Of a stretch of 64,000 bases of DNA, positions 1-4,039 are shown piece by piece. This DNA comes from Candidatus Syntropharchaeum sp. (GTDB lineage Archaea; Halobacteriota; Syntropharchaeia; Syntropharchaeales; Syntropharchaeaceae). The stretch's first letter is position 1. Each line of letters starts with the position of its first letter. Both the position numbers and the translations under genes were made by a program. The notes under the pieces were generated by a model that was given only the letters and a program-made list of their open reading frames with translations, made no database searches and was not told the DNA's origin. Location: positions 12,451-76,450 of the forward strand of contig JAOQII010000001.1 of NCBI GenBank assembly GCA_026134025.1. Direction: 5' to 3'.

Positions 1-103
1 CGATCTTGACCTTTTCGTCTGCTACCAGTGTGACCCCAGGGGTCTGTTCGCCATCTCTAAGCGTCGTATCAAAGAATCTAACAGATTCAACAAATAAAAC
101 GAT
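1..103 (-). CDS. 5' end of a (R)-citramalate/2-isopropylmalate synthase family gene (runs off the window); start codon unresolved
   Basis: Manual translation of the minus strand gives [34 protein letters not shown], containing the DTTLRDGEQ motif of LeuA/CimA DRE-TIM enzymes; in-frame TGA at 109-107. Confidence 0.85.
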
Positions 104-163
104 CCCTCATGAAGAATCGTCTTTCAGGGTTGTATAAATATCTTTTGAAGTTCTCGTGAAAGT

Positions 164-661: not shown

Positions 662-3600
662 CTGTTAGATAGACGTGCATTATCAAAAGCATATTTTACA
701 AAGGATAAACTTGTACAACATCATATCGACTCGTTCAATGCGTTTCTGGAGCAGGGACTTCAGGCGATCGTTGATGAGCAGGACATAATCGAGACATCGA
801 TCGAAGGGGGATCTGATCAGGACAAGTACAGAGTCTATGTGAAACTCGGCGATATTCAGGTCGGTACACCCAAGGTTAAAGAGGCTGATGGATCTAGAGA
901 AGATCTATTTCCAGCCCAGGCTCGTCTCAGAAATCTGACCTATAGCACTCCGATCACCCTCTCGATGAAGGTGGTGCGAGAGCACGCCGTGACCGGCGAG
1001 ATCGAGGAGGAACTTGAGGAGAAGGTTGAGATTGGCGAACTACCGATAATGGTCAGATCGAAAGCGTGCAACCTCAGAGGGCTCTCAGAAGCCGAAAGAA
1101 TTCGGGTAGGTGAAGATCCACTTGACCCTGGAGGATATTTCATCATCAACGGGACGGAACGGGTTGTGATAACACTTGAGGATCTGGCGCCGAATAAGAT
1201 TCTCACCGAATATGAGGTACGCTACGGAGATCGAGTCGAGATTGCAAAGGTTTTCTCACAGCGGCATGGTTACAGAGCGCTCGTTGTTGTTGAGAGAAAC
1301 CGTAAGTCGCTGCTTGAGGTTTCATTCCCATCGGTCGCTGGCAAGATCAACTTTGTGACGTTGATGCGTGCACTCGGACTTGAGACAGATGAAGAGATTG
1401 TTAACGCAGTCTCAACCGATCCAGAGATTATCAAGTTCATGATGGAGAACCTTGAAGAGGCAGGGGTTGAAACAACCGAGGAAGTGATGGACAAACTCGA
1501 AAAGAAGATAGCGGCAGGTCAGGCGAAGGAGTATCGCGAGATAAGAACGCGATACGTCCTTGACAGATACCTGCTACCGCACCTTGGGGAGGATGAAAAA
1601 TCGTACCTGAAGAAGGCATATTTCCTTGGCAGAATGGCTGAGGCATGCTTCGAGCTTGCGCTTGGGCGAAGAGGGGAGGATGACAAGGATCACTACACGA
1701 ATAAGCGACTCAAGCTATCTGGTGAGCTAATGGAAGATTTATTCAGGGTTGCGTTCAACCGCCTTATCAAGGATATAAAATACCAGCTTGAGCGGGCAAG
1801 CATGCGAAACCGAGAACTCTCGGTTGCGACCGCCATAAGATCTGATGTTCTAACAGAGCGTCTTCTTCATCCACTTGCGACTGGTAACTGGGTGGGTGGA
1901 AGAACCGGCGTATCACAGCTTCTGGACAGGACGGATTATATGTCACTTCTATCACACCTCAGGCGTCTTATATCTCCGCTATCCCGTTCTCAGCCACACT
2001 TCGAGGCGAGGGATCTTCATCCGACGCAGTGGGGAAGGATCTGTCCATCCGAGACACCAGAAGGACCAAACTGTGGTCTTGTGAAGAACTTTGCCCAGAT
2101 GGTTGAGTTATCCCGTGCTATAACCCCTATGGAGTCTGAAAAGCTTGAAAAAATGCTCAGAGAGTTTGGAATGACGCCTCTTAGCGAATCGAGATCCACT
2201 GCTGGAAATGTAGAAGCAAAATCGGCATTTCAGGCACGCGTCTTCCATAACGGGGATTTTATCGGGACACACAGTGATCCACGCAGACTGGTGAGGTTAA
2301 TCCGGGAGAAAAGACGAGAAGGAGAATTATCAACGTATATAAACATTGCATATCAGAATACAACAAAAGAGGTTGTTATAAATTCAGATCGAGGAAGGAT
2401 GAGACGACCCGTGATAGTTGTTGAGTCGGGATCGCCTCGCCTGACTAACGATTATATCGAACACCTTGCGAAAGGGAATATTAAATTTGAAGATCTTGTA
2501 GAGAATGGCTTCATCGAATACCTCGATCCTGATGAAGAGGAGAATGCGCTCATTGCTATCTACGAAGAGGATCTAACGCTCAATCATACACACCTTGAAC
2601 TCGACCCCGCGCTGATCCTTGGTATATGCGCGGGGATGGTTCCCTATCCTGAGCATAACGCCTCGCCGCGTAACACGATGGGTGCAGGAATGGTAAAACA
2701 GTCGCTCGGTGTCGGTGCTGTGAATATGAAACTCAGAGGGGATACAACGACCCATCTATTACACTATCCACAGCGTGCAATCACAAACACCCAAACGGCA
2801 ACCTCGATAGGCTTCAATGAACGACCTTCAGGTCAGAACTTCGTTGTGGCGGTCCTATCTTATGAGGGATATAATATCGAGGATGCCCTGATCTTTAACA
2901 AGGGATCGATCGAGCGTGGTCTTGGCAGGAGCCACTTCTTCAGGACGTACGAGGGGGAGGAGCATAGATACCCCGGCGGTCAGGAAGATACATTCGAGGT
3001 GCCTGATATCGAGGTAGCCGGGTGCAGAGGCAGTGAGTTCTACAGTTATCTCGATAGTGATGGTATCATAAACCCTGAGGTCGTTGTTCACCCAAACGAC
3101 GTCCTGATCGGAAGGACGAGTCCGCCTCGGTTCCTCGAAGAGCCTACTGACCTTGGTATCACCCCACAGCAGCGCAGGGAGACCTCGATCACGATGCGAT
3201 CGAACGAGATGGGAATCGTCGATACGGTAATTTTAACCGAGTCTGAGAACGGATCGAAACTCGTCAAGGTGAGCGTGAGGGATCAACGGATACCAGAAGT
3301 CGGTGATAAATTTGCATCCAGGCACGGGCAAAAGGGTGTGATCGGGTTGATCCTGCCAACGATCGATATGCCTTTTACCGAGGATGGTGTTGTACCAGAC
3401 CTTATCATCAACCCACATGCGATTCCTTCGAGAATGACGGTGGGACACGTGCTTGAGATGATCGGTGGTAAGGTCGGCTCGATGGAGGGGCGGTTCATCG
3501 ATGCAACCGCCTTCTCGGGTGAAGAAGAAGATGATCTCAGATCTGCACTTGCGAAGTTCGGGTTTGCACACACCGGAAAGGAGGTCATGTACAACGGAAT

Positions 3601-4039
3601 CACGGGTGAGCGGTTCAATGTCGATATATTCATCGGTGTGATCCTTTACCAGAAGCTATATCACATGGTCGCATCCAAGATGCATGCGCGGTCAAAAGGT
3701 CCTATACAGGTCCTAACGCGCCAGCCAACAGAGGGAAGAGCGAGAGAGGGCGGTTTGAGGTTTGGTGAGATGGAACGAGATGTCCTGATCGGATATGGTG
3801 CAGCACTGACGCTGAAGGAACGCTTACTCGATGAGTCGGACAAGGTCACGGTTCTTATATGTGAACACTGCGGCATGGTAGCGAACTTCGATAGACGGTT
3901 GAACACTGTAAACTGCCCGAACTGCAAAGCAGATACAGACATCCATTTTGTTGAGATGAGTTATGCGTTTAAGCTGCTTCTTGATGAGATGAAAGCGCTC
4001 TGTATTACGCCGAGACTCATCCTGCGGGACGCTGCATAG
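662..4039 (+). CDS. rpoB: RNA polymerase subunit B (Rpo2), single unsplit polypeptide; probable CTG start at 662
   Basis: Motifs [37 protein letters not shown]-terminal Zn ribbon; conserved N-terminus ([21 protein letters not shown]) lies in frame upstream of the ORF-track start at 839. Confidence 0.95.

Follow-up and report, generated by a model that had tools for sequence, protein, structure and literature searches.

A conserved, non-standard translation start on a citramalate synthase-type gene in Candidatus Syntropharchaeum and its possible decoding by a +1 frameshift

The programmed +1 frameshift of the bacterial release factor 2 gene, prfB, relies on a Shine-Dalgarno (SD) sequence located 3 nucleotides (nt) before a CUU codon, whose tRNA re-pairs on UUU when the ribosome reaches the stop. 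Initiation at near-cognate codons (AUU, AUC, AUA, and CUG) occurs together with an SD sequence, as exemplified by infC of E. coli, and leader-peptide attenuation is an established means of regulating amino-acid operons. Section 7 of a 2021 review (PMC8211752) cites the +1 shift of antizyme and hungry-codon frameshifting and describes fucA1 of Saccharolobus solfataricus, where a −1 shift occurs on an A-AAA-AAT heptamer in the company of rare codons and a stem-loop. Leaderless mRNAs, according to the parts of PMC8459731 that bear on start codons and leaders, strongly prefer AUG, also in E. coli and haloarchaea; near-cognate codons including AUC are drastically weaker on such mRNAs, and short leaders are inhibitory, output falling with each leader nucleotide added. 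The present analysis concerns the start of a CimA/LeuA-family synthase gene at the edge of a 64,000-nt stretch of DNA from Candidatus Syntropharchaeum sp. (hereafter referred to as the window; G000:C1:12451-76450). The window belongs to a metagenome-assembled genome of 98 contigs that is 92.5% complete (G000), which together with G001 and G002 represents three species of a single genus of uncultured archaea from vents and sediments. Coordinates are window positions and refer to the minus strand unless stated otherwise; those of the individual features are collected in Table 1.

The synthase gene, which looks essential for biosynthesis, has a real, conserved, and non-standard translation start. 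Its frame comprises 490 codons in total (G000:C1:11087-12556) and extends beyond the window edge. From 109 to 68, the enzyme frame reads TGA (109-107) GGG ATC GTT TTA TTT GTT GAA TCT GTT AGA TTC TTT GAT (70-68), and none of the 12 enzyme-frame codons between this TGA and the catalytic motif DTTLRDGEQ is an ATG, GTG, or TTG. The earliest canonical in-frame start is a GTG located 43 codons in, on the 3′ side of the catalytic motif. One base out of frame with respect to the enzyme, an ATG (110-108) opens a short open reading frame (ORF) that stops at TGA (89-87). The region thus presents the configuration by which frameshifted genes are recognized, an upstream ORF overlapping a startless downstream +1 frame that encodes a functional protein. 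When the sequence was re-read, every detail given by the initial annotation proved correct: the enzyme frame devoid of ATG, GTG, and TTG, the out-of-frame ATG at 110, the ORF encoding MRDRFIC, and the TTTATA box at 138-133.

The arrangement is neither an error nor a sign of decay. Logan contigs from four of four runs, originating from four studies, cover the site without a gap or a differing letter (the source sample may be among these runs). An identical relation of frames is found in all three species of the genus and in two further strains represented by metagenome contigs, which are identical at the site; G001 and G002 (83% protein identity) share both the frames and the block ATGAGGGATCGYTTTATTTGYTGA. 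An alignment of the 5′ regions of orthologues, which the initial annotation had suggested as a check, recovered the out-of-frame ATG in each of the three species. A canonical start precedes the motif in 27 of 30 orthologues of the class, and the remaining three are precisely those of this genus. Across the three species, the ratio of non-synonymous to synonymous change (dN/dS) is 0.07-0.19 for codons 7-43, at a proportion of synonymous differences (pS) of 0.54-0.69, as compared with a dN/dS of 0.07-0.09 for the rest of the gene. This purifying selection on codons 7-43 shows that ribosomes read the N-terminus in the enzyme frame and that the gene is functional. Moreover, the family pattern hydrophobic-R-hydrophobic-F-D is retained, with a synonymous AGA/AGG change. 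Conservation across species under purifying selection, another hallmark of frameshifted genes, hence holds for three species within one genus.

Gene callers have handled this start uniformly. All five close protein clusters (83-100% identity) are called from the internal GTG and amount to 445-447 amino acids without the catalytic motif. In a large protein database, all calls for the genus are short by 43-45 residues and lack the catalytic motif, because of which pathway reconstructions would score isoleucine synthesis as broken or doubtful. A scan of metagenomes yielded three close loci, all of them strains of two known species, and a scan of genome contigs yielded 12 loci, all distant. Beyond these loci, two protein clusters, P0003 and P0005, show 88% and 83% identity, respectively. 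The genus harbors a gene that is conserved, under selection, and not expressible by standard rules, with a cassette of about 45 nt at its beginning.

Three Pfam domains, HMGL-like, HCS_D2, and LeuA_dimer, are recognized in the synthase. The HMGL-like catalytic domain (PF00682) scores 238.8 bits over residues 9-261, and the DTTLRDGEQ motif can be read directly; the LeuA_dimer domain (PF08502) scores 128.8 bits over residues 356-489 and constitutes a C-terminal regulatory domain that is absent from homocitrate synthases. The NCBIfam model of the isopropylmalate/citramalate subfamily, NF002085, reaches 590 bits against a cut-off of 517. In Methanothrix, Methanococcoides, Methanolobus, and uncultured Halobacteriota, orthologues with 59-66% identity go mostly under the name (R)-citramalate synthase in NCBI, UniRef, and JGI, and in some cases under 2-isopropylmalate synthase. 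A second paralogue in the genome (45% identity) has an ordinary ATG start and higher scores with LeuA models (NF002085, 722 versus 590 bits; NF002086, 527 versus 471 bits). The family proposed by the initial annotation, a citramalate/isopropylmalate synthase, is thereby borne out. Within this family the enzyme appears likelier to be CimA than LeuA, an assignment that fits because of the names carried by the 60-66% identical orthologues and the existence of a separate LeuA-type paralogue. Citramalate synthase catalyzes the first step of isoleucine synthesis.

The sequence upstream of the out-of-frame ATG resembles the promoter of a leaderless gene. The distance from the 3′ end of the TATA element, which is part of a combined transcription factor B recognition element (BRE)/TATA-like box, to the ATG is 22 nt in G000 and 23 nt in G001 and G002. 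In a crude ORF survey of G000, in which an SD was defined as a GAGG or GGAG core 3-12 nt before the start, 717 of 1391 ORFs had SD-led starts, with a mode at 8 nt and TTG in use at 107 of the 717. Among SD-less ATG ORFs of the same genome, the motif TTTAWA peaks at a spacing of 23 nt (11/444), other spacings accounting for 0-5 cases and mostly for 0-3. Of the ATGs located 21-25 nt from TTTAWA, 102 of 318 in G000 and 99 of 304 in G001 begin an ORF of 100 codons or more, versus 39/227, 41/242, 60/277, and 36/239 at control spacings. This enrichment indicates that a class of leaderless genes exists in the genome. No SD is present 4-12 nt before ATG 110; a GGTGA occurs in G001 and G002 at 13-14 nt. 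Both attributes of a leaderless start, a TATA element at a fixed promoter distance and an ATG not preceded by an SD, are thus found here, and we infer from them a transcript whose 5′ end probably lies at or next to ATG 110. The leaderless start postulated at this ATG by the initial annotation is plausible since the spacing of 22-23 nt coincides with the peak for SD-less ATGs, that is, with the leaderless spacing of the genome.

How the arrangement may have come about is suggested by a comparison with the sister family, represented by four genomes. There, a GAGG is followed at 9-10 nt by TTG GTT AAY TTT TTT GAY, and the proteins are called from the SD-led TTG as MVNFFDTT...; the genus has TTT at exactly this TTG codon. 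The position equivalent to ATG 110 is occupied by ATG, GTG, GCG, or ACG in the sister family and always by ATG in the genus, the two bases before GAGG being AT, GT, GC, or AC in the former and AT throughout the latter. A AAAAGATATTTATA-type box is located 32-34 nt upstream in the sister family versus 22-23 nt in the genus, a difference of about 10 nt. The wider spacing fits a leadered, SD-led TTG start, and the change from 32-34 to 22-23 nt implies that some 10 nt of leader were lost in the genus, which places the ATG where transcription should now begin. The 3′ end of the 16S rRNA, ...GGATCACCTCCT (contig C21), can pair with both GAGG and GATC if one rRNA base is bulged. At window positions 92-108, the leader GAGGGATCGCTTT(A/G)TTGG is almost identical in two genera of the sister family (L007 and L010), where it forms an untranslated 5′ region. 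Pairing with the 16S 3′ end does not explain the part that follows GATC, which could represent a binding site for a regulator. Among 79 genomes of the class, the leader motif was found at the synthase gene only, in the three genomes of the genus and two of the sister family, apart from one chance match with a single mismatch; no recurrence before other genes was detected in this set.

The reading favored here, at roughly even chances, is that translation initiates at the leaderless ATG and that an obligatory +1 shift follows within the short ORF. In this scheme, the SD-led TTG start would have been lost in the genus by its change to TTT. Ribosomes would start on the 5′-terminal AUG and translate at most the seven codons for MRDRFIC, and a fraction of them would slip by +1 before or at the UGA, thereby entering the enzyme frame. 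The full-length enzyme would consequently begin with 2 to 7 residues encoded by the short ORF. Such a shift is confined to positions 86..107, given an enzyme frame that opens at 106 and a short ORF that ends with the stop at 89-87, and the first enzyme-frame codon usable after it is GGG (106-104). The initial annotation had likewise invoked a +1 event, and some such event indeed constitutes the simplest canonical route into the enzyme frame.

Further indications come from the substitution pattern. Counted from the A of ATG through the TGA, 22 of 24 columns do not vary among the three species, as opposed to 3 of 22 in the 22 nt directly upstream, and the conserved block begins precisely at the A of ATG. 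The two variable sites, CGT/CGC and TGT/TGC, are third positions with synonymous outcome in the short ORF, whereas for the enzyme they are second positions (Val/Ala). In the six codons 5′ of GAA, every enzyme-frame third position is invariant (6/6), versus 163 of 482 elsewhere in the gene. This pattern fits translation in the frame of the short ORF up to the Cys codon.

Candidate shift sites were compared on the basis of anticodons found in the genome (Arg CCU, Phe GAA, Ile GAT, and Cys GCA). On AGG_G, tRNA-Arg CCU would re-pair fully on GGG, and the codon that follows, GAT, is common. On UUU_A, where the initial annotation had located the slip, tRNA-Phe GAA would keep two of three pairs, with AUU as the next 0-frame codon; re-pairing on AUU_U is weaker. 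At UGY_UGA_A, the UGY codon cannot re-pair in the +1 frame, and the shift would be of the antizyme type, taking place at the stop. The substitution pattern mildly favors this last site. In contrast to the earlier proposal, TTT-ATT is not singled out: AGG_G, ATT_T, and TGY-TGA are equally well or better placed, and conservation cannot set one site apart because the whole block is almost invariant. The evidence thus backs the need for a shift better than it backs any particular site, and the shift itself, its location, and its efficiency are what we infer. Isoleucine sensing at the ATT codon, as put forward initially, is an appealing but unsupported speculation. The full proposal, in which an obligatory +1 shift would be the only route to citramalate synthase, with an efficiency set by decoding of the Ile codon or the UGA, and would act as an on-switch when charged tRNA-Ile is short, is regarded as doubtful.

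Several observations weigh against a frameshift. The synonymous pattern consists of two substitutions in three species within a nearly invariant block and would arise by chance with a probability of about 0.1. Moreover, the leader GAGGGATCGCTTT is conserved in two genera of the sister family, one of which lacks the ATG (ACG) and leaves the region untranslated. Since that genus keeps the leader all the same, nucleotide conservation of the leader there needs no coding explanation, and some nucleotide-level constraint acts on it as well. None of the seven codons is rare; ATT, at 17.8 per 1000, is the least used Ile codon (20%). No stimulatory RNA structure was found at the site, folding z-scores being 0.04 and -0.22 and the consensus fold lacking covariation support. 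Nor does the GAGG lie 3 nt before any of the codons that could re-pair, so a stimulatory element of this kind is missing, and no classical +1 signal is complete here. Short ORFs at leaderless spacing that overlap a long +1 frame number 10 in the genome, versus 6-7 at control spacings, which does not represent an enrichment. The architecture is unique in the genome, with one other case of a short ORF and a +1 frame that has a late canonical start. For archaeal recoding in general, section 7 of the 2021 review lists a single proven −1 shift and mentions none in the +1 direction for a cellular gene (PMC8211752).

The other short-ORF case lies on contig C29 of G000 (minus-strand offset 477), where a TATA element is followed at 22 nt by an ATG with a two-codon ORF and an overlapping +1 frame of 345 codons, whose first canonical start is codon 44. 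It is absent among the conserved pairs with G001. A hairpin at window positions 74-88 (minus strand), GAATCT GTT AGATTC, with a 6-base-pair palindrome and a 3-nt loop, was considered as a stimulator and rejected, as it performs no better than shuffled controls. The palindrome starts at the last base of the TGA of the short ORF and is kept in G001; G002 has another hairpin of 5 base pairs in a different register, which is not above shuffled controls either. No frameshift-suppressor tRNA with an odd anticodon loop was detected among 41 tRNAs predicted by ARAGORN, which was run without intron search and returned an incomplete set. This set for G000 contains no Tyr, Trp, or Leu-TAA tRNA and one CAT anticodon, probably owing to introns or missing contigs.

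If translation started with Met at the in-frame ATC (103-101), no frameshift would be needed, and the short ATG ORF would be a by-product or decoy. The ATC is the only enzyme-frame codon before the motif with a single mismatch to a start codon, and it is conserved in all three species. A comparison of the whole of G001 with G000 by stop-to-stop frames yielded 1473 reciprocal-best pairs, 819 of which are coding-like, and in 67 of the 819 the first canonical start is preceded in both genomes by 10 or more aligned codons; numerous frames among the 67 are antisense or otherwise spurious. In three genes, namely those for a biotin ligase-like protein, a DUF63 membrane protein, and a RibD_C reductase, a Pfam domain begins 5′ of the first canonical start, and a conserved SD is accompanied by a near-cognate codon. 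The biotin ligase-like gene, for example, contains no ATG, GTG, or TTG for 107 codons in G000 or 64 codons in G001, with its Pfam domain starting at residue 44, while G002 has an ATG in the codon directly before the conserved ATC; the gene likely starts at ATC (or AAG). Judged from these genes, near-cognate initiation does occur in these archaea and is tolerated in the genus in three Pfam-backed genes and two plausible ones. The prior for an ATC start at the synthase gene is raised by this use of near-cognate codons elsewhere, at the expense of a frameshift.

An ATC start of the synthase, a serious candidate and the chief rival of the frameshift, is nevertheless considered the less likely of the two. 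The distance from the SD core to the near-cognate codon is 7-9 nt in the control genes, versus 0-1 nt here, which is outside the usual range of 5-10 nt. With a 5′ end at the ATG, the ATC would be preceded by a leader of 7 nt without a usable SD, and in the work cited above (PMC8459731) leaderless initiation drops with a short leader as well as with a start codon other than AUG. Furthermore, an out-of-frame AUG located 7 nt upstream should compete with the ATC and be selected against, yet it is conserved. Synonymous sites after the ATC are frozen (6/6) while two second positions vary, and the ATC is also conserved in two genera of the sister family that start at TTG. The non-canonical start listed as an alternative in the initial annotation has gained some weight from the other genes of these genomes, and its SD spacing of 0-1 nt speaks against it.

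A further route, with an SD-led start at the out-of-frame TTG (93-91) and a subsequent −1 shift to the enzyme frame, is very unlikely. TTG is a canonical start codon that accounts for 107 of the 717 SD-preceded starts, it lies 11 nt after GAGG, and it is one base away from the TTG position of the sister family. However, no slippery heptamer follows it, and the V/F-R-F/L-F-D pattern places ribosomes in the enzyme frame from about position 82 onward, for which reason the −1 shift would have to fall within three or four non-slippery codons. The third-frame ORF opened by this TTG is conserved in neither length nor sequence: it comprises 23 codons in G000, ends at a stop after 11 codons in G001, and encounters no stop in the stretch read for G002. 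Removal of one U at the RNA level, by polymerase slippage or editing, is even less credible, given T runs of 3-4, whereas known transcriptional slippage needs much longer homopolymers. Readthrough of TGA 109-107 from a start further 5′ was also rejected, since no start lies upstream and a second upstream in-frame stop in G001 would keep readthrough from reaching one. Gene decay, or a truncated product that starts at the internal GTG and lacks the catalytic motif, would agree with the choice of the callers in all five close clusters, but it is scarcely tenable in view of a dN/dS on the 5′ side of the GTG (0.07-0.19) that is no less low than elsewhere in the gene (0.07-0.09) and a 490-codon frame that is intact in three species. 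A sequencing or assembly indel in the T run of a gene with a true in-frame ATG, an alternative raised by the initial annotation and conceivable for a TTTT-containing site in a 98-contig metagenome-assembled genome, is contradicted by four independent assemblies from four studies that agree without gaps, by a frame relation common to three species and two more strains, and by the shorter T run of G001 (CGC TTT) with unchanged frames, and has practically no probability left.

The genes next to the synthase in the window run divergently from it on the plus strand: a tRNA-Lys(TTT) at 316-389, an ORF of 80 amino acids at 402-644 that, read by eye, resembles RNA polymerase subunit H, and an RNA polymerase B-like ORF of 1066 amino acids at 839-4039. 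Because of this orientation, the synthase gene is the first of its transcription unit. The tRNA-Lys(TTT) has very deep read cover from many organisms in the runs examined. Downstream of the synthase and on the same strand, ileS (TIGR00392, 1003 bits) follows at a distance of about 1.3 kb, with a pfkB-family kinase gene in between (G000:C1); the loci downstream of the synthase include L074:634-3816:- and L074:3827-4735:-. The order synthase-pfkB-ileS is kept in G002, while G001 and two sister-family genomes (G007 and G003) carry the synthase gene and ileS on separate contigs. Linkage to ileS was considered as support for a connection with isoleucine and set aside as too weak, since the genes lie on other contigs in G001 and the sister family.

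Table 1. Coordinates of features at the synthase gene start and of genes with candidate near-cognate starts
Feature	Sequence or motif	Position	Strand	Remarks
BRE/TATA-like box	AAAAGATATTTATA	133..146	minus	TTTATA at 138-133; conserved in 3/3 species
Seven-codon out-of-frame ORF (MRDRFIC)	ATG AGG GAT CGT TTT ATT TGT + TGA	87..110	minus	putative 5′ end of leaderless mRNA
Stop closing the enzyme frame upstream	TGA	107..109	minus	overlaps ATG (ATGA)
Shine-Dalgarno-like element	GAGGGATC	101..108	minus	conserved in genus; GAGG in 4/4 sister-family genomes
Candidate interval for +1 shift		86..107	minus	candidates AGG_G (107-104), TTT_A (98-95), ATT_T (95-92), TGT_TGA_A (92-86)
CimA/LeuA-family frame, 5′ part		1..106	minus	continues to G000:C1:11087; DTTLRDGEQ encoded at 70-44
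Sole near-cognate start in enzyme frame before motif	ATC	101..103	minus	1 nt after GAGG, 0 nt after GAGGG
Enzyme-frame TTT	TTT	92..94	minus	aligns with sister-family TTG start (nucleotide comparison, L004-L006 versus L007-L010)
Out-of-frame TTG	TTG	91..93	minus	11 nt after GAGG; opens third-frame ORF
Biotin ligase-like gene	GGAGGTG-TAAAG-ATC	G000:C1:1021-1848 (outside window); G001 L122:7916-8740:+; G002 L165	minus (G000)	
DUF63 membrane protein	GGTGATC-TT-CTG	G001 L113:16574-17467:+		G000 orthologue on C34
RibD_C reductase	GGGTGAT-GACCG-ATT	G001 L138:1141-1806:-		G000 orthologue on C12
Aminotransferase-like gene, 458 amino acids	ATC	L140:4221-5594:-		plausible candidate
Small HSP20-like gene	ATA	L095:2869-3276:+		plausible candidate

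The cassette would reveal either a +1 shift right after leaderless initiation or the choice of an ATC start without a usable SD. If the former were true, it would constitute the first case of +1 recoding in a cellular archaeal gene and, if coupled to isoleucine, an amino-acid sensor working without attenuator or riboswitch. The field of archaeal recoding is almost unexplored, and a literature search at the level of titles and abstracts found no frameshifted citramalate synthase, no leaderless +1 cassette, and no natural hungry-codon +1 on-switch. The ATC, ATT, and CTG starts in several housekeeping genes also affect gene calling across the lineage, as callers will truncate such genes.

With prfB, the locus shares a short ORF ending in UGA, a product encoded in the +1 frame without a start of its own, and an SD-like, G-rich element within the short ORF. 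In contrast to prfB, the codon before the UGA (UGU/UGC) cannot re-pair, the SD-like element lies 12 nt from that codon, and the short ORF has seven codons and is probably leaderless. An autoregulatory logic is not obvious here, since this archaeon has only one release factor. The resemblance to infC-type near-cognate starts lies in the in-frame ATC and in the use of ATC, ATT, and CTG elsewhere in the same genomes; the SD spacing of 0-1 nt sets it apart, given 7-9 nt in the other genes. Like hungry-codon and attenuation systems, the locus has a short leader ORF with a codon for the end product (one ATT) on the 5′ side of a biosynthetic gene, whereas it differs from attenuation systems in that the Ile codon is single and neither a terminator nor an antiterminator is present. 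The UGY-UGA-A candidate would parallel antizyme, itself a metabolite sensor, in a +1 shift at UGA without P-site re-pairing; antizyme is eukaryotic, stimulated by polyamines, and equipped with a downstream pseudoknot, whereas no structure was found here. As in fucA1, an archaeal cellular gene is divided between two frames and would, on the proposal made here, be expressed by recoding. Unlike fucA1, whose split is strain-specific and whose full-length relatives are common, the synthase gene would require a +1 shift, is split at its N-terminus, and has this arrangement fixed in the whole genus.

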